Shown: positions 9,999 to 56,652 of the stretch, one piece after another
How the letters are laid out: each line of letters opens with the position of its first letter
How positions within the stretch are numbered: position 1 is the first letter of the stretch
IMG/VR virus record: IMGVR_UViG_3300037010_000803
Location: 1-56,652 of that record
DNA length: 56,652 nucleotides
Origin: a virus
Lineage: Duplodnaviria; Caudoviricetes
Reading direction: 5' to 3' (one strand)
Notes under the pieces: generated by a model
The model's input: only the letters and a program-made list of their open reading frames with translations
Database searches by the model: none
What the model was told of the DNA's origin: nothing
Position numbers and translations under genes: made by a program

Positions 9999-10046
9999 AA
10001 TATAATGCTTTTGTTTTGCTTTGTCAAGTGCCGTAACTACTTGATT
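9999..10046 (-). promoter_or_regulatory. Late promoter with upstream IHF-consensus site
   Basis: TTGACA(10027-10022)-17-TATATT(10004-9999); AATCAAGTAGTTA (10046-10034) fits WATCAANNNNTTR; conserved at 43600-43647. Confidence 0.75.
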
Positions 10047-11619: not shown

Positions 11620-11822
11620 CTGCCACCTCCCTCACTTTTCACCCCTGGCTTTTGCTTCACACCCGCATATTCACCCAGAAGGCAATCCCAAAGAACGCCA
11701 AAGGCTTCCATCAGCTCCGCCTCACTACTACCGCCCTGCTCATAATCAAGCAGTACATGCTCCACTCTCGCAAGGTCCCAGCCCTTGCGTCCCGCGCTTC
11801 CCTTTGCATTATTCCGCTTCAT
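11616..11822 (-). CDS. Hypothetical protein
   Basis: GGAGGTG RBS, coupled to dnaB. Confidence 0.55.
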   Translation of the reverse strand: MKRNNAKGSAGRKGWDLARVEHVLLDYEQGGSSEAELMEAFGVLWDCLLGEYAGVKQKPGVKSEGGGR

Positions 11823-13149
11823 CTGCCACCTCCATTCCAAAGTCTTGTTGCTCTAGCCACTCCATGGTGTTCTTGCGGAAGGCCATCCGCAGCATTCCTG
11901 TTGGGCCGTCCTGATTCTTGGCAAGAATGATTTTAGCGTCCTGGACTGGCGGCCCGTTGCGCTTGTTAACATCCCATCGGTGCAGTAGCAGAACGCCCGT
12001 CCCTTTTTCTTCGAGCGTCCCGGTCTCCTTCAGGTCCGCCAAGGTAGGTAGGTCGTCTTCTCCCAGCCCTTCAGCGCGCCTGTTCAATTGCGCAGCTAAC
12101 AGCACCGGCACGCCCAGCCTTTGCGCCAGAGCATCAAGTTCCCAAACGGTCTCCGCCGCCTGTTCCCGCAAGGAGCTAAGCTTTTGCGGCGACCTGACAA
12201 GCTGGAAATAATCAATCGTCACAAGGTCCAGGCCGCCCATAGCAGTCTGAGCCTGCTTCGCGTAGTTTTCAATCTCAGGCGGTGATATTCTCGGCTGTGC
12301 CACCATATACAAGCCATAACCCGATAGCTCTTCGAGAGCTTTCGAGTAACGCCGTTGCTCTTCCGGCGTCAAAGGCACCTTGCATTCCAGAGGGCTCTTG
12401 ACGCGGCTCAACGCCAAGCCCGTCTGTTGCGCCAGCATTCTCCACACGTTTCTACGCGGTCCCATCTCTAGCGCGAAATGGCACACCTTCTTCCCAGCCT
12501 TCAGATTGCGTAGAATCAGCCCTAACATGAAAGAGCTTTTCCCAACCTGTGGCCGGGCGGCAACAATCCAAAAAGAGCCGAGCTCCATCCCTAGCGGTAC
12601 CAGCTCGTCAATAGACGGCAAGCCAAAATGAATCCCTTCAGGCGCGCCACCTTTTACCGCTTCGTCCATTTCATGCTTCACCAATTCAAGAGCGGTCCAG
12701 GCAGTCTTCCGCTTCTTTTTGCCCTGCGAACGTACCACATGCAGGTACTTCTCGGTCTTTTCCAGCAATACGTCAGGGTCAAGCTCCGTATTTGCGGCCA
12801 ATCGCGTCGAGATGGCGTTTATATGCCTGCGCATCAAGCCATTCTGAATAATCTCGCAGTATCCCTGCGCCTGGTCCGCCGTCAAGAACGGGACGCCTTC
12901 CATGAGAGACGCCAAATAGCCGGGTGGCCCCATCTGCTTTTTCCGCTTTTCCAGGTCGTTGTACACGGTGAGGTAATCCGCCGCCGCGCCGAGGCCAACC
13001 ACGGACTCGAAAATGTCCCTATGTACCGGCAAAAGAAAGCTCTTCGGCTCTAAGGTGGCCATTGCCACCCTTCGGCTGGTCTCACACCGGCAAAGAATCG
13101 CTCCGAGTAACGCTCGCTCCGCTTCTAACACAAACGGCTCTTCGGCCAT
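11809..13149 (-). CDS. dnaB: DnaB-like replicative helicase
   Basis: EAERALLGAIL, Walker A ARPQVGKS, IDYFQL, AQLNR, DLKETGTLE, AKNQDG. Confidence 0.92.
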   Translation of the reverse strand: MAEEPFVLEAERALLGAILCRCETSRRVAMATLEPKSFLLPVHRDIFESVVGLGAAADYLTVYNDLEKRKKQMGPPGYLASLMEGVPFLTADQAQGYCEIIQNGLMRRHINAISTRLAANTELDPDVLLEKTEKYLHVVRSQGKKKRKTAWTALELVKHEMDEAVKGGAPEGIHFGLPSIDELVPLGMELGSFWIVAARPQVGKSSFMLGLILRNLKAGKKVCHFALEMGPRRNVWRMLAQQTGLALSRVKSPLECKVPLTPEEQRRYSKALEELSGYGLYMVAQPRISPPEIENYAKQAQTAMGGLDLVTIDYFQLVRSPQKLSSLREQAAETVWELDALAQRLGVPVLLAAQLNRRAEGLGEDDLPTLADLKETGTLEEKGTGVLLLHRWDVNKRNGPPVQDAKIILAKNQDGPTGMLRMAFRKNTMEWLEQQDFGMEVADEAE

Positions 13150-13160
13150 AGGATTCTCCT

Positions 13161-14006
13161 TCAGTTAAGCAGGTCGTAAATCTGCTTCTTCGGCGGCTCG
13201 ACTTCGTCTTCCCAACAGGCTCCCTTCAGCCAACGTTCAGGGTCCTTGTAGAACTGCAATTCTCTACCGCTCTTCTTCAGACGCTCAATGGCCGCCAGAA
13301 TAACTTCCAAATCCGGCCGTGGGCGTAACTTCACCCATTCACGGTAAGCATTCCGCTTGGCCCGTTTCTTAGGGTAGGCTTTCCAGAATCGTTCAAAGTC
13401 TTCTGGGTAGGTGAAAACCTTCGATTCAGAACGGGCTTTCTTCTCGTTGCCGTTCCTCATTTGCTCCGGGAGCACTCCCGGAGTAGTCCCGGAGTAGTCC
13501 GGGAGTTGACCAAGAGTAGTCACGGCGATAGCCGGGACTACTCCATTCTGTTCCGTTCCGTTCTGTTCTGTTAAGTTATGTTTAGTTATGTTATGTTGTA
13601 TAACTACCTTATTAAGGTCCTTAATAAGGTCCTTATTAACCACCTTATCAGACGCCCATCGGCGCTGCATTCCGACCTTGCCGCCTTGCGCCATCTTCCC
13701 GCGTTGAGCAAGCAGTTCTTGGCGCTTTTCATGGAGCCATCGGTTGCGCCGTTCACCGTTGCCAAGGTCCACGCTGAATACCTCCTTAATAGCAGGATAT
13801 AAGGTGCTTATATCCACCTTATCCTTGCCAATGTCGCAGCGGCATATATGGGCCAGTTTGGCCGGGTCATCCGGGATGCTCTCATTCTGCCACTGCCATA
13901 TCAAGAGCAAGAAAACGCCGCCTATTTCTGCGGTGCTTAAAAAGGCGAAACGGCTGTCGTTGATAAACTCGCCAGGGTAGATGGGGAAAAAGGGCGGGGC
14001 TTTCAT
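13161..14006 (-). CDS. Replication initiator, YdaU/DUF1376-like N-terminus (type A)
   Basis: PPFFPIYPGEF...LSTAEIG N-terminus; internal repeats; FERFWKAYPKK C-domain; upstream of dnaB. Confidence 0.8.
   Translation of the reverse strand: MKAPPFFPIYPGEFINDSRFAFLSTAEIGGVFLLLIWQWQNESIPDDPAKLAHICRCDIGKDKVDISTLYPAIKEVFSVDLGNGERRNRWLHEKRQELLAQRGKMAQGGKVGMQRRWASDKVVNKDLIKDLNKVVIQHNITKHNLTEQNGTEQNGVVPAIAVTTLGQLPDYSGTTPGVLPEQMRNGNEKKARSESKVFTYPEDFERFWKAYPKKRAKRNAYREWVKLRPRPDLEVILAAIERLKKSGRELQFYKDPERWLKGACWEDEVEPPKKQIYDLLN
13469..13544. repeat. 11-bp repeat set (GGAGTAGTCCC-like) inside rep A
   Basis: ggagcactccc ggagtagtccc ggagtagtccg ggagttgacca agagtagtcac ... gggactactcc. Confidence 0.7.
13545..13647. 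repeat. Putative origin A: AT-rich pentamer run plus four 12-bp-spaced iterons (TAAGGTCCTTA-like)
   Basis: TAACTACCTTA 13601, TAAGGTCCTTA 13613 and 13625, TAACCACCTTA 13637; two more at 13800 and 13811. Confidence 0.75.
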
Positions 14007-16267: not shown

Positions 16268-16917
16268 CTGTTCACCGTCACGGTCTTTTTCCGCACTTCA
16301 ACGCCCGGAATCACCACGCCGTTCAGGGCATCCTCGCGGATTTTGACCATGTTCAGTTCCCAATATTCATCTGGCACAAGCGACGGCGTGACCACCACCA
16401 CATCGGAGACCGTTCGATAACTCACCCCGGCCACCTTGGGCGTGGAGTCTAGAGCCGCCGCTAACGTCACCGGCGCTTCCGCCGCCACAATGGCCTGCTT
16501 GGCTGCCTCTACGGCCGCCTTGTCCCCAGCGGCCATCGCTCTCTGGGCCTCGGCCAAGGCGCGTTCTTGCGCCTCTCGTGCTTTGCGCCGCTCTTCTTCA
16601 ATAAGTGCCCGTTTGGTGGCCTCTTGCGCCTCACGATATGGTATCAGTTTGGAGTCACAGACTTTGATAACCTTTTCAGGCAAGGCGCAGAGTTCTTTTT
16701 CTTTCTCAAGCGCCGCTTTGTGGGCCGCGTTTGCCGCGTCTTTCAAAGGCTTAATCCAGGTTTTCGCTTCTTTCAGAAACTGGCCTGCCAGCGCTCGCTG
16801 TTCTGCCACCAACGCATAAGTGGCTTCATCTTGGACCACCGTTCTGTCCACGAGCGCGAGCGCCGCGTTCGCCGTTTCCGCCATCTTCGCCGCCTTAACG
16901 TCCAGTTCAACACTCAT
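16264..16917 (-). CDS. Coiled-coil protein, Gp157/Gam-like
   Basis: Long helical body, C-terminal VPDEYW...IPGVEV; in the recombination module. Confidence 0.55.
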   Translation of the reverse strand: MSVELDVKAAKMAETANAALALVDRTVVQDEATYALVAEQRALAGQFLKEAKTWIKPLKDAANAAHKAALEKEKELCALPEKVIKVCDSKLIPYREAQEATKRALIEEERRKAREAQERALAEAQRAMAAGDKAAVEAAKQAIVAAEAPVTLAAALDSTPKVAGVSYRTVSDVVVVTPSLVPDEYWELNMVKIREDALNGVVIPGVEVRKKTVTVNR

Positions 16918-20113: not shown

Positions 20114-20464
20114 AGTGTCCCTCTTTTGCAGCCGTTCGCTCAATTCGGCCACCACGGCTTCATGCATCGCGTTAGCTTCAGCATCGGAAGTTTCCGACAA
20201 CGTCACTATTTGCCACTTGCTCTTGAAATGCACTTGCTTTGACGTGTTGGCGTCCCAGTAGATACCGTTTCTCTTTGCGCGAAATGCCATGGTCTCATAG
20301 AAACTGGCGTAGCCTATCGGCTCGCCATTGTCCATGGCCCCGACCGTTGAGACCACGATTCGCTTGTCGCCGCATTCCAACAGAGTGTTCCGGCGAAAGC
20401 GGCAACGGCTCGCCGAGATGAAATGGCCGCCCCAGCCGCGTTCTGTGCGTTTGACCTCGTCCAT
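20108..20464 (-). CDS. Conserved phage hypothetical protein
   Basis: ERGWGGHFI...CRFRRNTLL; homologue at 54322..54678. Confidence 0.75.
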   Translation of the reverse strand: MDEVKRTERGWGGHFISASRCRFRRNTLLECGDKRIVVSTVGAMDNGEPIGYASFYETMAFRAKRNGIYWDANTSKQVHFKSKWQIVTLSETSDAEANAMHEAVVAELSERLQKRDTP

Positions 20465-20482
20465 ACTCACCTCCTCAGTGGT

Positions 20483-20656
20483 TCAGGAATCCTTAACAAC
20501 TGGCCCAATCACCTCGCGAAACTCCGCGTCCAGTTCAGCGTTGATTTTTTCTGCGAGCGAGCCCGAATATTTTTCTTGGAACGTTTCGAGCGCTTTTTGG
20601 AAGTCAAGCGGCTCTAAATCTCGTAGCGGGTGATTGCCTGTTCTGTTTCTATTCAT
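20483..20656 (-). CDS. 57-aa hypothetical protein (below ORF-track cutoff)
   Basis: MNRNRTGNHP...EFREVIGPVVKDS; last 13 codons shared with 54692..55204. Confidence 0.55.
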   Translation of the reverse strand: MNRNRTGNHPLRDLEPLDFQKALETFQEKYSGSLAEKINAELDAEFREVIGPVVKDS

Positions 20657-20919
20657 GTTTAGCTATCCTGTTTAACTGTCTTTTAAGACTAATGCCAGAG
20701 CCCGAGAGAGACGCTCCCCCCTATAGTCCCCCCAGCATGTTAGCGCTGAAGTGGACCAAGGAGAACGTCTCGACTGCGGCTTAAGACTTATGCCGTCGCC
20801 GTCGCTTCGACGCTGGCGAGTTCCCCAGGCTCGCCCGCAGCCATCTGGCCGCGCCCAATTAACGTGCCGCCTATCCACACGGAGGCCGGGGGCAACGTGT
20901 GGCTTAGACTTGGATTGAC

Positions 20920-21050
20920 AAAGAGAAAGCCCTGGGGCTGTCGGACCCAGGGCGTGGACAGTCGCAGGGACGCGAGTAGCTGCGACGACTTGTATTCAAT
21001 TTTCGTTCTCACCCGCGTCCACCTTTCTAGCCGCCGACAGCGGCCTTCAC
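20920..21050 (-). ncRNA. C4/CI-like structured leader ending in a terminator-like hairpin
   Basis: 5' hairpin segment GCTGTCGG complementary to CCGACAGC in the loop of GCCCTGGG/CCCAGGGC, which is followed by TTTCTCTTT; hairpin conserved at 56607-56631. Confidence 0.55.
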
Positions 21051-21057
21051 AGAGCCT

Positions 21058-21086
21058 AATATAACGCCTTTTGCGGCGTTTGTCAA
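21058..21086 (-). promoter_or_regulatory. First early promoter, with palindromic spacer
   Basis: TTGACA-17-TATATT; AACGCC-N6-GGCGTT inverted repeat over the spacer. Confidence 0.8.
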
Positions 21087-21104
21087 GTGGCACACTTTGG
21101 GCGA

Positions 21105-21208
21105 GAGTTAACAAGAGTTAACACGAGTTAACAGGCTGTTAACAGGAAGTTATAAGGTCCTTATAGCCACCTTAGTAAGGTCCTTATAGGGACCCTATAG
21201 GTGTGCTA
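21105..21208. repeat. Dual iteron block: 4x GTTAAC(A) followed by TAAGGTCCTTA-type repeats
   Basis: GTTAAC at 21107, 21117, 21127, 21138; TAAGGTCCTTA at 21153 and 21176, TAGCCACCTTA 21164, TAGGGACCCTA 21187, TAGGTGTGCTA 21198. Confidence 0.85.
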
Positions 21209-21228
21209 TAGCAGACCCATTGGGTGTA

Positions 21229-21864
21229 CTAGAGCGTGCTGGAGTCGTTACGGACGGCGAATAACTGCGTTGCGGAATAGGTGGTGGAAGGGACTTTCGC
21301 GGCTTCTTTCGCGGCGGCGTCGTAGAGGTCCTGTGGCGTGAACGTGTCCCTGTCAGGCACTTCCAGCGCCCAGCCCAAGTCTCCACTGCCAACGCCAAGA
21401 GCGTTAGCCATGAGGACCATGTCGGTGAGAGCGACCAGGACTTCTTCACTGCAAAACTCGTGGCGGCGGATGGGATTGGGGACTTGGCGATTGAACAGTC
21501 CGGCAACCCAGTTGAGCGGGAGAATGACGGCGAGATTCACGACCGAAGCCCAGGCGTAGCTTTGCCCTACTCGGTCTTCAGCGTTGCGGATGGCGAAATT
21601 GATTGCCTGTTGCGGCTGATTCGGGCAGAATACGGCGAGGTCACCGCGTTCCCATTCGGCGCGGTAGTCGGACAACGGGTGGCGCTCAATATGATCCCGC
21701 GCTTCCTGAGAGAGGGGGCCGTTCTCATTCACGGCCACAATCCACCCGGAGTGGTTGTACCGGCCACGGGAAAAGAATTGAATGGCGCGAGAGATAAATC
21801 CCGTCTCGTGGACGGACCAGAAACAGCCCGGTTGAATCTCTCCCCACTTCGTGATTCGTCTCAT
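21229..21864 (-). CDS. Permuted papain-like NlpC/P60 (YiiX/YaeF-like) protein
   Basis: SRAIQFFS..YNHSG (His) precedes EFCSE (Cys); GQSY motif. Confidence 0.7.
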   Translation of the reverse strand: MRRITKWGEIQPGCFWSVHETGFISRAIQFFSRGRYNHSGWIVAVNENGPLSQEARDHIERHPLSDYRAEWERGDLAVFCPNQPQQAINFAIRNAEDRVGQSYAWASVVNLAVILPLNWVAGLFNRQVPNPIRRHEFCSEEVLVALTDMVLMANALGVGSGDLGWALEVPDRDTFTPQDLYDAAAKEAAKVPSTTYSATQLFAVRNDSSTL

Positions 21865-21930
21865 GGCATCCTCTGGCCGTTCTTTTCGAGGCCCGGTGGA
21901 ACGGCCAAGCCGGGTGGAGGTGAGAGGAGC

Positions 21931-22161
21931 CTACTTTGGCAGCGCCACCTTTCCGGCGCTGTTGATACTGATTGCGACGCCGCCCAGGTTCGCCAGCATC
22001 AAGAGGGAAAACAAGACCCAGTCTTTGCCATCCTTCGGCCATGCAGCGCTTAGGATGTATGCAGCCTGAGCCGCCGTCAAGGCTATTCTACTACCAGCGT
22101 TCTTGAGGTGGTAGTACCACCAGGGCTCGGCGTTCGACGGCGAGAATCCTTCGGTAGCCAT
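21931..22161 (-). CDS. Small membrane protein, holin-like
   Basis: Two hydrophobic segments, lysis-region position. Confidence 0.5.
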   Translation of the reverse strand: MATEGFSPSNAEPWWYYHLKNAGSRIALTAAQAAYILSAAWPKDGKDWVLFSLLMLANLGGVAISINSAGKVALPK

Positions 22162-22694
22162 TAGAATCGGTATCCTATACGGAGAGCCGTTTCGGCAATG
22201 TTCGCCACGCCAACACCGGGGACGTTCGCCAGGTGGCGATATTTCATTTCGGCCCCAGCGTACCAGTGCGAGGTGAAATTATACGCCACGGCGAGTCCCG
22301 CATATAGACCGCCCGTTTCGTGACCAGCGTAGTGCAAAATGCTGAATCCCGCTTCCGGCATCACCGTCCATTTACCAGCATCCCAAGGAATACCCATACC
22401 CGCGTCCCAGAGGCCGTATTTTAGGCCGGAGGGCGGAAGCTGGGTGAAGTTATGGCTTGCGGCCCAACTCTCAATTTTGAGCGCGTCCTGCGCGTATGCG
22501 AGGGTGAATGCGAGGTGCTTGTAAGCGCGCCAGCCCATACCGGCCTGCAACTGCCACTGCGTGTCCCAGGCCGAAGCAGCATAATTCCCCTGCGCGGGAT
22601 ACCACAAATGCCCGGTCCCTAGCCAAACGTCCTGTGCCACAGCCGGTAAAGCCGCCAGAAAGCATAACGACAAAATCACTGCGATTCGTTTCAT
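22161..22694 (-). CDS. Outer-membrane beta-barrel protein (Lom/Ail/OmpX-like)
   Basis: Signal peptide ending AVA-Q, amphipathic strands, C-terminal LRIGYRF beta-signal. Confidence 0.75.
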   Translation of the reverse strand: MKRIAVILSLCFLAALPAVAQDVWLGTGHLWYPAQGNYAASAWDTQWQLQAGMGWRAYKHLAFTLAYAQDALKIESWAASHNFTQLPPSGLKYGLWDAGMGIPWDAGKWTVMPEAGFSILHYAGHETGGLYAGLAVAYNFTSHWYAGAEMKYRHLANVPGVGVANIAETALRIGYRF

Positions 22695-45706: not shown

Positions 45707-45910
45707 TCACCTCCTTTCTTCCCCAGAAATTGGAAAATAAGCAATAGCATCTGTCACTACCTTAGCGCCAGCCAGAAAGGCCGCTGAAGCGCTTGCCGTT
45801 TTCGCCCAGGTCACTACTCCATTCCAATCTCTCGCCTTCCGGCTGTCCTCGGCCTTACTAAGAGCCACTGCCACCGTGGCCTCGTGTATTTTCGTTACTT
45901 TACTCGCCAT
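45707..45910 (-). CDS. Hypothetical protein (unit B only)
   Basis: GGAGG RBS, overlaps the dnaB stop. Confidence 0.55.
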   Translation of the reverse strand: MASKVTKIHEATVAVALSKAEDSRKARDWNGVVTWAKTASASAAFLAGAKVVTDAIAYFPISGEERR

Positions 45911-47243
45911 CCGCCGCCTCCATTCCGTAGTCTTCGCGCTCTTCCCACTTGAGCACCGCCCTGTTGTATGTCATGTCTAGCACACCCGTCCCGCCGTCTT
46001 GTTGTTTCGCCAGAATGATTTTGGCCGGTGTCCGAGAAGCATCCCAGCGGTCTATATTCCAACGGTGAAGTAGCACAACACCCGTTGCCTTCTCTTCGAG
46101 CGTCCCGCATTCCTTCAGGTCGGCCAGCGTTGGCAACTCGTCTTCTTTGTTGCTCTCCGCGTTCCTGTTCAATTGCGCCGCCAACAGTACAGGGACCTTC
46201 ATCCGTTGCGCCATCGCGTCTATGGCCCACACGGCCTTAGCTCCTTCTTCCCGCAAGGTGTTGAATCGTTGAGGCGAGCGAATCAGCTGGAAATAATCCA
46301 AGACGATTAAATCTAATCCGTCCATGCGCTGTTCCGCTTCCACGGCCTTGGCTTCGATTTCCGAGGGCGAGGCCGAAGGCATAACGGCCATAACGTAGTT
46401 GTCCACTCCCAGCCGGTCGTTAATGGCCGCCGAAAGACGACTCATTTCCTTGGCGTCCAACGGCTTTTTGCAGTTGGTCGGATTCTTCACCCTTGCTAAC
46501 GCGAGCCCAGTCATATGAGTCAAAAGCCGCCAAGCGTTGCGTTCAAGCCCCATTTCCAGAGCGCAGTGGAAGATTTTCTTCTTGCCCCGTAGATGGTGCT
46601 CTATGATGCCGGTGAGAAAGGTCGTTTTACCGACTCTCGGCCGAGCGCCCACCACCCAAAAGCTCCCAGGCTCCATTCCGTATTCGACCTTGCCGTCCAG
46701 GGAGGGCAGCCCGAAGTCCAATCCCAATGTTTTGCCCTTCCGCCGCTCCAGGTAGCTCTCCATGACCGCCGAGGCGATTTCCGGGCCGGTGAACATAGTC
46801 TTGCGCGCTTCCACCCGCTCCTTGACCTTGTGGATGTACTGAGCGGCCTTTTCTGCCAGTTCCCCAGCCGGAGCGATTCCCTGCGAAGCATCCGCCAGTT
46901 TCTGGCCCACCCGTTCAAGATGACGCCGCGCCGCTCCGTCCAGGACAATGCCACAATAGTTTCTCGATTGCCGCGTGTCGAGGTCAGGCAGCCCTTCCGT
47001 GAGACCGGCCACCCAGCCCGCGCCACCCACCTTCACCATTTCACCGGAGCGCGCAAGTTCACGGCTCACGGTCACCAAATCGGCGTTGGCACCCAGGGTC
47101 AAAGCTGTCTTGAAAATAATCGCCAGCGCGGTAGAAGGCATGTCTTCAGGCCGTAGCGTCTCAAAGGCGACGCTTTTGGCGGCCTTGCAGTTCAAGAGAA
47201 TTGCTCCCAAAATCACTTTAGCAGCTTCGATTGAGTCATCCAT
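45900..47243 (-). CDS. dnaB: DnaB-like helicase (unit B allele)
   Basis: ARPRVGKT, LDYFQL, AQLNR, DLKECGTLE. Confidence 0.92.
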   Translation of the reverse strand: MDDSIEAAKVILGAILLNCKAAKSVAFETLRPEDMPSTALAIIFKTALTLGANADLVTVSRELARSGEMVKVGGAGWVAGLTEGLPDLDTRQSRNYCGIVLDGAARRHLERVGQKLADASQGIAPAGELAEKAAQYIHKVKERVEARKTMFTGPEIASAVMESYLERRKGKTLGLDFGLPSLDGKVEYGMEPGSFWVVGARPRVGKTTFLTGIIEHHLRGKKKIFHCALEMGLERNAWRLLTHMTGLALARVKNPTNCKKPLDAKEMSRLSAAINDRLGVDNYVMAVMPSASPSEIEAKAVEAEQRMDGLDLIVLDYFQLIRSPQRFNTLREEGAKAVWAIDAMAQRMKVPVLLAAQLNRNAESNKEDELPTLADLKECGTLEEKATGVVLLHRWNIDRWDASRTPAKIILAKQQDGGTGVLDMTYNRAVLKWEEREDYGMEAADGE

Positions 47244-48073
47244 TTCGGGTCTCCTGGCATGTGGTAGTTAGGGTCGTCGAAGTTTTGGTACGGGCATTCC
47301 TTCGGCGGCTCAACTTCGTCTTCCCAGCACGCTCCCTTCAGCCAACGTTCGGGGTCCTTGTAGAACTGCAATTCTCGCCCGCTCTTCTTCAGACGCTCGA
47401 TAGCCGCCAGAATAACTTCCAAATCCGGCCTTGGGCGTAACTTCACCCATTCACGGTAAGCATTCCGCTTGGCCCGTTTCTTAGGGTAGGCTTTCCAGAA
47501 TCGTTCAAAGTCTGGTGGATAGATGAAAGGCTTTGGCTCTGAGCGACGTTTCTTTGCATTGACCGAAACTTGACCAAGAGTAGGACAGGCGTCAGCCTGG
47601 CCTACTCCGTTTCTCTTTGCTTCTGCTTCTGCTTCTGCTTCTGCTTGGGCTAACTGCTGTTCACAAGTGTTAACAGGTGTTAACAAAGTGTTAACAGGTG
47701 TTAACGACTCTTTACGTGCCCGTTCCCTGCGGTCGGCCATGTACTGGCGTGCATACTCCCGACGCTGGCTCTCGTCTCGTAACTGCCTGTATTTGGTGTA
47801 GTTAAGAATCAGATAGCCGCCGTCAACGCGCTCGATTCTCCGGCCTTCATACTCCATGGTTCGAGAGTCAGGGTCGGGCTCTTGAAACTTTTGTAAAGCC
47901 TGTAAACAAATGTTAACATCCACCCTCGCCCTGTTAGCAATGCCCGGCGCGGCGGCCAGGACCATGCCGTCTTGATTCGCCATCAAGAGCATGGTCATCC
48001 ATACGACGCGGGTATCCGACGATTCCGCCCAGATGCTGGAGTCAAGCAGAGATTGAAATGCTTTTACGTACAT
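47213..48073 (-). CDS. Replication initiator, type B N-terminus
   Basis: MYVKAFQSLLDSSIW... N-domain; internal GTTAAC repeats; C-domain shared with rep A. Confidence 0.8.
   Translation of the reverse strand: MYVKAFQSLLDSSIWAESSDTRVVWMTMLLMANQDGMVLAAAPGIANRARVDVNICLQALQKFQEPDPDSRTMEYEGRRIERVDGGYLILNYTKYRQLRDESQRREYARQYMADRRERARKESLTPVNTLLTPVNTCEQQLAQAEAEAEAEAKRNGVGQADACPTLGQVSVNAKKRRSEPKPFIYPPDFERFWKAYPKKRAKRNAYREWVKLRPRPDLEVILAAIERLKKSGRELQFYKDPERWLKGACWEDEVEPPKECPYQNFDDPNYHMPGDPKWMTQSKLLK
47618..47705. repeat. Putative origin B: (TGCTTC)n run plus GTTAAC iterons at 10-11 bp spacing
   Basis: GTTCAC 47659; GTTAAC 47669, 47679, 47690, 47700; further TGTAAAG/TGTAAAC/TGTTAAC at 47892-47918. Confidence 0.75.
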
Positions 48074-48075
48074 GG

Positions 48076-48309
48076 CTACTTCTCCTTCTCCTCTTTCGCC
48101 CTGTAAGCCGCGCAATGTGCTGCGCTAAAATGGGGAGCTATCTCAACGAAGTCGAGCGGCTCTTCCGGGCTAACTACCATCGGCAAGGGCATGAAGCTCA
48201 GGACGTGCGAGAGGAAACGTGCCGCTCGGCATTGACCAACATTGCTGCCCTCTTGGGTCTTGCTAAAGTCACCGTGTACACAATTTCCACAAGTCTTCTT
48301 CTTGCTCAT
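48076..48309 (-). CDS. Small Cys-rich protein, paralogue 2
   Basis: MSKKKTCGNCVHGDFS...SAAHC. Confidence 0.65.
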   Translation of the reverse strand: MSKKKTCGNCVHGDFSKTQEGSNVGQCRAARFLSHVLSFMPLPMVVSPEEPLDFVEIAPHFSAAHCAAYRAKEEKEK

Positions 48310-50763: not shown

Positions 50764-51413
50764 CTGTTCACTGCCACAGTCTTCTTGCGCACTTCAACAC
50801 CCGGAATCACCACGCCGTTCAGTACATCTTCCCGGACCTTGACCATGTTCAGTTCCCAGTATTCGTCAGGCACGAGTGACGGCGTGACCACGACCACCTC
50901 GGAGACCGTCCGATAGCTTACACCGGCGACCTTGGGCGTGGAGTTCAGAGTCGCCGCTAACGTCACTGGCGCTTCCGCCTGGACAATGGCCTGTTTGGCC
51001 GCCTCTACGGCCTCCTTGTCACCTGTAGCCATAGCTTTCTGCGCCTCTACCAAGGCTCTTTCTTGCGCCTCCCTTGCCTTGCGCCGTTCCTCTTCGATTA
51101 GCGCCCGTTTCGCGGCCTCTTGCGCCTCGCGGTAGGGAATCAATTTGGAATCACACAGCTTGATGACCTGTTCAGGTAGGGCGCAAAGTTCTTTTTCAAG
51201 GGCCAGCGCGGCTTTGTGCGCCTCATGCGCCTTTGTTATAATGGGCTTCATCTTGGCCTTGGCCTCTTTGATGAACGTCCCCGCCAGCGCACGCTGTTCG
51301 GCTACGAAGGCGTAAGTGGCCTCATTCGTGACCTCTGTTCTTTCTACGAGTGCCAACGCAGATACGGCCGTTTCCTTGACTTTCTCCGCGTACACCTCTA
51401 TTTCAACACTCAT
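50760..51413 (-). CDS. Gp157/Gam-like coiled-coil protein
   Basis: Homologue of 16264..16917. Confidence 0.55.
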   Translation of the reverse strand: MSVEIEVYAEKVKETAVSALALVERTEVTNEATYAFVAEQRALAGTFIKEAKAKMKPIITKAHEAHKAALALEKELCALPEQVIKLCDSKLIPYREAQEAAKRALIEEERRKAREAQERALVEAQKAMATGDKEAVEAAKQAIVQAEAPVTLAATLNSTPKVAGVSYRTVSEVVVVTPSLVPDEYWELNMVKVREDVLNGVVIPGVEVRKKTVAVNR

Positions 51414-56599: not shown

Positions 56600-56652
56600 T
56601 GAAGAAGCCCTGGGGCTGTCGGACCCAGGGCCTGAACAGTCGCGGTGAAAGG
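56600..56652 (-). ncRNA. 3' part of the C4/CI-like leader of unit B (truncated by the window)
   Basis: GCCCTGGGGCTGTCGGACCCAGGGC identical to 20929-20953. Confidence 0.5.

Follow-up and report, generated by a model that had tools for sequence, protein, structure and literature searches.

Arrays of iterons, the repeats bound by replication initiators, which lie outside an origin are textbook knowledge for plasmids and for the phages P1 and P4. In the incA locus of P1, as for the control iterons of plasmids, an extra array outside the minimal origin is thought to titrate the initiator or to pair initiator-bound origins. P4 carries two clusters of the same initiator-binding repeats, ori and crr, of which crr acts in cis away from the origin. 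To our knowledge, such accessory arrays are always of a single specificity. Here we analyse a 115-bp non-coding block in the IMG/VR virus record IMGVR_UViG_3300037010_000803 (56,652 bp, used at full length and called the window in the following), in which repeats matching the in-gene iterons of two different replication initiators, Rep A and Rep B, stand side by side upstream of an early promoter. From sequence comparison we give a probability of roughly 55% to the reading that this block is an accessory initiator-binding array similar to P1 incA or P4 crr, which lies outside the origin, upstream of the first early promoter, and contains an exchangeable cassette of foreign specificity. Accessory iterons as such are known, but in the open literature (supplements excluded) we found no description of a phage locus with iterons of two initiator specificities, or of an own-type plus a foreign-type array with a polymorphic cassette before the first early promoter.

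The likeness to P1 incA is that in both cases an array of own-type iterons without an unwinding element lies outside the minimal origin. However, the P1 array adjoins its replicon and has a single specificity, whereas the block is found ~7.5 kb away from the origin, before the first early promoter, and comprises a foreign-type array in addition. Like the P4 genome, the phage has its origin repeats in a second cluster at a distance from the first, but the P4 initiator is a primase-helicase and crr consists of one repeat type, while two types of predicted sites are present here. As for the lambda O gene and ori-lambda, iterons are located inside the initiator gene beside an AT-rich stretch.

A further parallel is the inhibition phenotype of lambda. 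According to PMC3349717, a fragment with a short promoter-to-terminator RNA (oop) and the iterons ITN3-4, but lacking the AT-rich part, acts in trans to silence the replication of phages that have the same rep type, and titration or handcuffing alone is stated there not to explain the effect. In the window, too, iterons without an AT-rich part adjoin the promoter of a predicted short RNA with a terminator-like end. However, the lambda effect was seen with plasmid clones, whereas the block is natural and ectopic, and the Reps of the window do not show the Phage_rep_O Pfam domain. For PLE RepA and its origin, PMC8263062 reports alternative modules of N-domain and iterons which function only with their cognate partner and have been exchanged among relatives; iteron specificity is itself an arena of conflict between such elements. 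The origin-directed nuclease of ICP1 (PMC8263062) is however a protein that copies a DNA-binding specificity, whereas here a DNA block would display the sites of two specificities.

Repeat sets of the block and their in-gene counterparts

The record is a complete IMG/VR entry and classed as linear. In a self-comparison, positions 1-20,965 are a mosaic homologue of 34,525-56,643, with blocks of 73-96% identity at an offset of ~34.5 kb. Several modules are replaced between these two parts, including the N-domain of the rep gene, and an MT-A70 methylase is found in unit B only. The record covers one ~35-kb phage 1.64 times and does so in two diverged variants, unit B (56,652 -> 21,229) and unit A (21,100 -> 1). 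Most likely this arrangement arose when the assembly passed from one strain of a mixture to another, and does not reflect a physical tandem. Because the record holds 1.64 copies of a ~35-kb phage in two variants, the real genome has one rep gene and not two.

The block spans 20-135 bp upstream of the -35 element of the first early promoter and fills most of the 142-bp gap between this element (21086-21081) and the stop codon (21229-21231) of a gene for a 211-aa protein. It consists of two repeat sets, whose coordinates and motifs had been given correctly in a first-pass annotation of the window. Set 1, a 44-bp cassette (21104..21147), contains four copies of GTTAACA, the core of the rep B iterons, with starts at 21107, 21117, 21127 and 21138 and thus a spacing of 10/10/11. 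Set 2 (21153..21219) comprises six abutting 11-bp units with a period of 11/12/11/11/11. The units U1 (21153) and U3 (21176) read TAAGGTCCTTA, which is exactly the rep A iteron, and U2 (21164) reads TAGCCACCTTA, a flank type of rep A. These are accompanied by U4 (21187, TAGGGACCCTA), U5 (21198, TAGGTGTGCTA) and a sixth, weaker unit, U6 (21209, TAGCAGACCCA).

Both counterparts are encoded on the minus strand, rep A (281 aa, 13161..14006; PHROG 270 and 9327) in unit A and rep B (300 aa, 47213..48115; also assigned by PHROG), the initiator of the other variant, in unit B; the PHROGs call both proteins replication initiation or primosomal proteins. In Pfam neither Rep matched Phage_rep_O; Rep A gave a sub-threshold match to DUF1376 only (22.2 vs 30.1 bits) and Rep B gave nothing, and sequence searches of the PDB with both Reps returned nothing meaningful. 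The C-domains of the two proteins are near-identical over ~80 residues, whereas the N-domains show no detectable similarity (E = 6.8). In both genes the arrays lie in the linker between N- and C-domain. The rep A iterons (13601-13647) have a period of 12, with TAAGGTCCTTA at 13613 and 13625 flanked by TAACTACCTTA and TAACCACCTTA, and a second pair, TAAGGTGCTTA and TATCCACCTTA, is located at 13800-13821. The iterons abut the most AT-rich 40-mer of the window (13576-13615, 80% AT). Across this AT-rich stretch from the iterons, rep A also contains an 11-bp tandem array of CTCCCGGAGTA (13464-13525, 3.9 copies), which does not occur in the block. In rep B, (T)GTTAAC(A) is found four times at 47668-47705 (GTTAAC at 47669, 47679, 47690 and 47700, spacing 10/11/10) and once more, as the palindrome TGTTAACA, in the N-terminal coding part (47911-47918) beside a stretch of 72% AT. 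No comparable AT-rich stretch accompanies the rep B array itself, the surroundings of which have 47-65% AT.

The first-pass annotation had equated the block repeats with the in-gene repeats in motif and phasing. This can be maintained for the cores and approximately for the phasing (10/10/11 in set 1 vs 10/11/10 in rep B), but three of the four set-1 units read AGTTAACA, the spacers differ (GAG in set 1 vs GTG in rep B), and set 2 has a period of 11 bp vs 12 bp in rep A. The block and the in-gene arrays thus have the cores and the helical phasing in common and nothing else, and the self-comparison found no rep-like flanking sequence around the block. Therefore the block is neither a recent copy of the in-gene arrays nor the remnant of a rep pseudogene; common cores and phasing with differing spacers are what is expected for selected binding sites and not for a duplicated segment. 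In a composition test of all 40-mers of 21040-21240 the AT content did not exceed 62%, and an AT-rich unwinding element is by this test absent from the block, so that the block is expected not to fire alone.

The repeat words are nearly confined to the rep genes and this locus, as a window-wide motif scan and Tandem Repeats Finder both show; that they might be common genome-wide had been named as an objection beforehand. GTTAACA has 18 matches on both strands vs 3.5 +/- 2.1 expected, and none of 100 shuffles reached 18. The 14 GTTAAC sites of the 56,652 bp are distributed over the block (4), rep B (5) and five scattered places, while the four TAAGG.CCTTA sites are shared equally by rep A and the block, and CCACCTTA occurs twice in rep A and once in the block. 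Tandem Repeats Finder reported 15 rows at 5 places for the whole window: eight in the origin region of rep A, three in that of rep B and two in the block; the remaining two places are trivial 12-mers in 2 copies. Leaving one homologous A/B pair aside, GTTAACA is the only 7-mer which clusters (at least 3 copies in 70 bp) at two places.

The stretch was found in four public runs, of which X1 and X2 possibly represent the source sample, while X3 and X4 stem from other studies. The block is bridged with 0 differences by one contig each from X1 (record 6, 20363-22192, depth 112), X2 (record 15, 21055-22670, depth 204) and X3 (record 22, 20513-21567, depth 146). The contigs with rep A have depths of 128, 175, 162 and 109 in X1-X4, vs 112, 204, 146 and ~115 for the block. 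These similar depths agree with the linkage of block and rep A in the record, without proving it. An estimate of the abundance of variant B from other letters at variant positions was rejected, as the letters at 20393, 20396 and other checked places are not those of B.

The block therefore belongs to the variant which is linked to rep A by the record and by the depths, and, with one rep gene per genome, set 2 represents the own iteron type and set 1 a foreign one. The claim that the block carries sites for both replication initiators of the phage has to be modified accordingly: the two sets do match the origin repeats of two Rep variants, but these variants are not encoded by one genome.

Set 1 as a polymorphic cassette

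Among the matches listed, one further IMG/VR contig bears this junction, and L005, L043 and G001 all belong to this contig. In L005 the order is the late gene (protein 93% identical), set 2, a 13-bp filler in the slot of set 1, and the promoter. Set 2 is identical at 66 of 67 positions, the sole change being the central base of the U4 palindrome, whereas the promoter (33/46) and the whole leader behind it (101/139, 73%) are less conserved. The drop in identity from 86/88 to 33/46 occurs exactly at set 1. Because the L005 contig is unit-B-like to the left of the slot, including the MT-A70 gene, the slot is placed at a module breakpoint. A similar filler allele is found as a minor variant in X4, where 21103 is joined to 21148 with 13 letters between them (depth 3.46 vs ~115); it is one letter off the L005 filler, and GAGTTATAAGG is already present in the filler allele, adjoining the slot.

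The cassette of set 1 is thus optional and polymorphic, whereas set 2 forms the conserved core. The dual state is not a fixed design but a polymorphism, since both L005 and the minor variant of X4 lack set 1. The filler is 31 bp shorter than the cassette, which corresponds to about three helical turns, so that the rotational setting of set 2 to the promoter is nearly kept; this may be chance.

The L005 contig ends ~40 bp before the start of the rep A equivalent and contains no Rep. L192, from the same metagenome as L005, starts at residue 17 of Rep A and has identical A-type iterons. From these sequences the L005 relative is most likely of the Rep A type with set 2 only, that is, with matched specificity.

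A 14-mer scan of viral contigs gave at least 106 stretches, and 107 loci were compared with the window; among the matches listed only L005 and L043, which belong to one contig, match it. With proteins as anchors, the 211-aa late gene found one locus, MT-A70 found 67 loci of which only the L005 contig is close, and P0008 found no loci. A metagenome scan with a 118-aa early protein gave 250 relatives, the best 80 of which all have at most 59% identity and none a Rep homologue; four of these 80 share a nucleotide match of 117-142 bp with the window. The scan of genome contigs returned one distant match only (34% identity), and among GenBank phages there was no nucleotide match, with at most 42% identity for TerL and at most 37% for Rep.

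The connection of GTTAACA with Rep B-type initiators can be followed into distant phages. A scan of viral contigs for three copies of GTTAACA gave 100 stretches, loci being selected here by having an array. Three of the 100 encode a detectable relative of Rep B, namely L380, L389 and L399 (GC 37-65%), whose proteins are 29-41% identical to Rep B (E <= 3e-27). Their GTTAAC arrays are located at residues ~134-151, compared to 137-149 in Rep B. This position inside the homologues is not forced by the array-based selection of the loci, and since the arrays of all three distant genes coincide with that of Rep B in protein position, the motif is identified as the iteron of that family. Two or more arrays occur in 14 of the 100 stretches, in none of them more than 1 kb apart.

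Among public metagenome proteins (P0004-P0013), four or more N-domain/linker alleles occur in combination with the same Rep C-domain. P0008 is of the Rep B type and encoded on a 39,774-bp contig, and P0006, on a 26,886-bp contig, represents a fourth allele. Linker alleles have each their own short peptide repeat (for example PTVSPTVS, TPIRGLSE x3, NVNTPIDE x2), which suggests that the in-gene iterons of these alleles may differ as well. Reading the peptide repeats of the Rep alleles C and D back into DNA words was tried and dropped, because the codons are not known. A modular pattern of initiator/iteron pairs is also reported for PLE RepA (PMC8263062).

For the words of set 2, a scan for two copies of TAGGGNCCCTA returned four stretches, three of which look intergenic by eye, while the fourth, in L402, lies in a putative initiator. 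In this 272-aa ORF (open reading frame; 284-1102) the N-terminus has a motif resembling that of Rep A (pairwise E = 2e-4), and the next gene (1104-1700) encodes a DnaC-like loader. The linker of the ORF contains TAGGGACCCTA and TAGGGTCCCTA and then repeats of the GACCGGAACT type. The occurrence of TAGGGACCCTA, the U4 word, as an in-gene repeat of this putative initiator is a single weak hint that U4 could belong to the same iteron superfamily, and it is all that remains of the idea that the block might display iterons of multiple further alleles.

Promoter, leader and gene order

The block lies directly upstream of a strong sigma-70-type promoter, as had been proposed. This first early promoter (21058..21086, minus strand) has the hexamers TTGACA and TATATT with a 17-bp spacer and 11/12 consensus matches. 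The hexamers are kept in L005 (TTGACT/TATATT) with a different spacer. The window contains eight minus-strand promoters of this one format (TTGACA or TTGACT, 17-bp spacer, TATATT), at 21086, 19050, 14461, 10517, 10027, 53897, 48813 and 43628, and it is the one at 21086 alone that has arrays upstream. In the five promoters of unit A a short stem-loop follows the transcript start, which at 10027 is directly continued by a terminator-like hairpin.

Behind the first early promoter we predict a leader or short RNA of ~130 nt (20919..21051, minus strand), which consists of a 5' hairpin (21045-21029), a variable middle hairpin and a terminator-like hairpin (20953-20929) followed by a T-run (20928-20919). 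Both the 5' hairpin (17/17) and the terminator-like hairpin (25/25) are identical in L005, and the terminator hairpin is found again in unit B at 56605-56643. With a z-score of -1.44 the fold does not surpass that of shuffled sequences, 17 of 200 of which fold as well, and no Rfam family matched 20400-21400.

All long ORFs are located on the minus strand. In this direction the early genes encode methyltransferases, an Erf-like annealing protein, an exonuclease, the replication initiator, a DnaB-like helicase and a ParB-methylase. These are followed by the packaging and head genes (TerS, TerL, portal, adaptor) and then by the tail genes and, as the last gene, the 211-aa gene at the block (21229..21864, minus strand), a late, tail-side gene from the ORF list without assigned function, with only a weak PHROG match and no Pfam match. 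The block sits at the sole late-to-early boundary within the record, and TerS and TerL are located ~14 kb from it, behind another promoter. The ORFs searched against PHROG and Pfam included none recognisable as an integrase, repressor or partition gene. The DnaB-like helicase gene beside rep B (45900-47243; PHROG 19, E = 1.4e-56) has a counterpart in the same position after rep A, an ORF (11809-13149) with patchy similarity to it (243 bp at 73%); a single TGTTAACA palindrome outside the arrays is found in this ORF at 11964-11971. Inside the exonuclease-like gene, GGCGCAA occurs three times within ~64 bp at the homologous places 16567-16630 and 51063-51126.

Possible roles of the block

If the block is an accessory initiator-binding array, Rep would, as it accumulates, load on the array as dimers or oligomers, and since the block has no unwinding element this would not lead to firing but to titration of Rep. 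Alternatively, the array could pair with the in-gene origin, in a handcuffing or enhancer role as in P1 incA and P4 crr, or its occupancy by Rep could be coupled to the adjacent promoter. The sensing, decoy or copy-number roles put forward in the first-pass annotation are likewise hypothetical. The foreign-type cassette would most likely derive from modular exchange among co-circulating phages, in which N-domain and iteron modules may be interchanged while the Rep C-domain stays the same.

Several observations have to be set against the reading as an accessory array. Three of the four set-1 units read AGTTAACA, while rep B uses the palindrome TGTTAACA. For set 1 no matching protein is detectable in the genome with the block, leaving half of the block without a cognate partner in cis. 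The block and rep A are phased by a strain-mixed assembly and by similar depths, not by long reads, the Rep type of the L005 relative is derived from two separate contigs, and the junction of variant B is located past base 56652, where the record ends. In addition, 40 of the 100 GTTAACA x3 stretches have their arrays in an open frame of at least 150 codons, whereas the other 60 have them outside a long frame, so that proteins other than Rep may use GTTAACA.

The same holds for the frequency of such arrays. We compared 38 distant loci with the same Rep C-domain, examining +/-10 kb, although many of the loci are incomplete. In most of the 38, 7-mers cluster shortly before the C-domain match, but an ectopic array comparable to the block was not seen within this distance in any of them. 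Accessory arrays are by this comparison not a habit of the family. If at least three copies are required, one locus (L206) has one low-information 7-mer, CGATCGC, 3 kb away. With at least two copies, 18 of 38 have isolated 7-mer pairs, and only L205 has two overlapping 7-mers (an 8-mer pair), while the window under the same test gives five overlapping 7-mers, corresponding to an 11-mer pair.

Of the other explanations, the one that fares best is that set 1 is a neutral relic or by-product, generated by recombination or by slippage of a GAGTTA-containing word, and that at most set 2 is functional. The absence of set 1 from L005 and from the minor variant of X4, its location at the module breakpoint, the presence of GAGTTATAAGG beside the slot already in the filler allele and the lack of a cognate N-domain in unit A would all fit. 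However, the four GTTAACA cores are intact and phased 10/10/11 like the rep B array, and the dual allele dominates in the four runs (depth 112-204 vs 3.46 for the filler in X4); the near-conservation of the helical face of set 2 by the 31-bp difference also points away from a relic, weakly, as it could be chance. We therefore consider a relic unlikely.

Less probable still, and rather speculative, is that the block serves as a polyvalent initiator trap in the competition of co-infecting phages, with phased arrays for the own Rep and for rival Rep alleles beside the promoter of a short RNA. The rival sites would be the Rep B-type GTTAACA and possibly further DUF1376-type words such as TAGGGACCCTA. 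The arrays might soak up or handcuff the initiator of a rival, or the phage's own DNA might recruit it, and changes in the set of rivals would lead to gain and loss of cassettes.

Two explanations appear improbable to us to a similar degree. In the first, the block would be a second, transcription-activated origin (ori2), usable by either Rep, for which promoter and short RNA would provide activation or a primer. Lambda requires transcription near its origin, and in the window, too, the iteron arrays adjoin a strong promoter which drives a predicted short structured RNA. However, the block with its maximum of 62% AT, compared to 80% beside the rep A iterons, has no AT-rich unwinding element, the canonical arrangement of iterons and AT-rich stretch is already present inside rep A, and transcription from the promoter runs away from the arrays.

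In the second, the repeats would bind a protein other than Rep, either a transcription factor acting on the first promoter or a protein of packaging or of the genome terminus; their likeness to iterons would then be convergent. Counted from the predicted start, the set-1 centres lie upstream by ~59, 69, 79 and 90 bp, which would be typical activator positions, and only three of the 100 viral GTTAACA x3 stretches have a detectable Rep B relative. Moreover, some phages with one direction of transcription (T7-like) have fixed genome ends at the late/early boundary, which is where the block is found. It would nevertheless be required that two unrelated words, each multi-copy and phased, both match the origin array of a Rep variant from the same phage population; no further copy of either N-domain is encoded in the window, and TerS and TerL are ~14 kb off, behind another promoter. 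Least probable by far is an assembly artefact with the halves of the block joined from different molecules near 21148, a scenario considered in the first-pass annotation: although the record wraps two strain variants and the runs hold many, the independent contigs from X1, X2 and X3, the last from another study, exclude such a join by spanning the block and both flanks with 0 differences, and L005 has the same flanks in the same order.

The reading as an accessory array with an exchangeable cassette describes a natural block in which candidate sites of two dissimilar Rep N-domains lie side by side, one of them as a cassette that is polymorphic within a single population, in a phage whose searched ORFs included no recognisable gene for lysogeny or plasmid maintenance. 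Should binding be limited to the own-type set, the block would still represent a rare accessory initiator site in a phage with an in-gene origin, given that none of the 38 distant loci is comparable. If the sites of both sets are bound, 115 bp and two small N-domains would provide a compact test system for the compatibility of replication modules during mosaic exchange, and also for the question whether phages interfere with each other's initiators.

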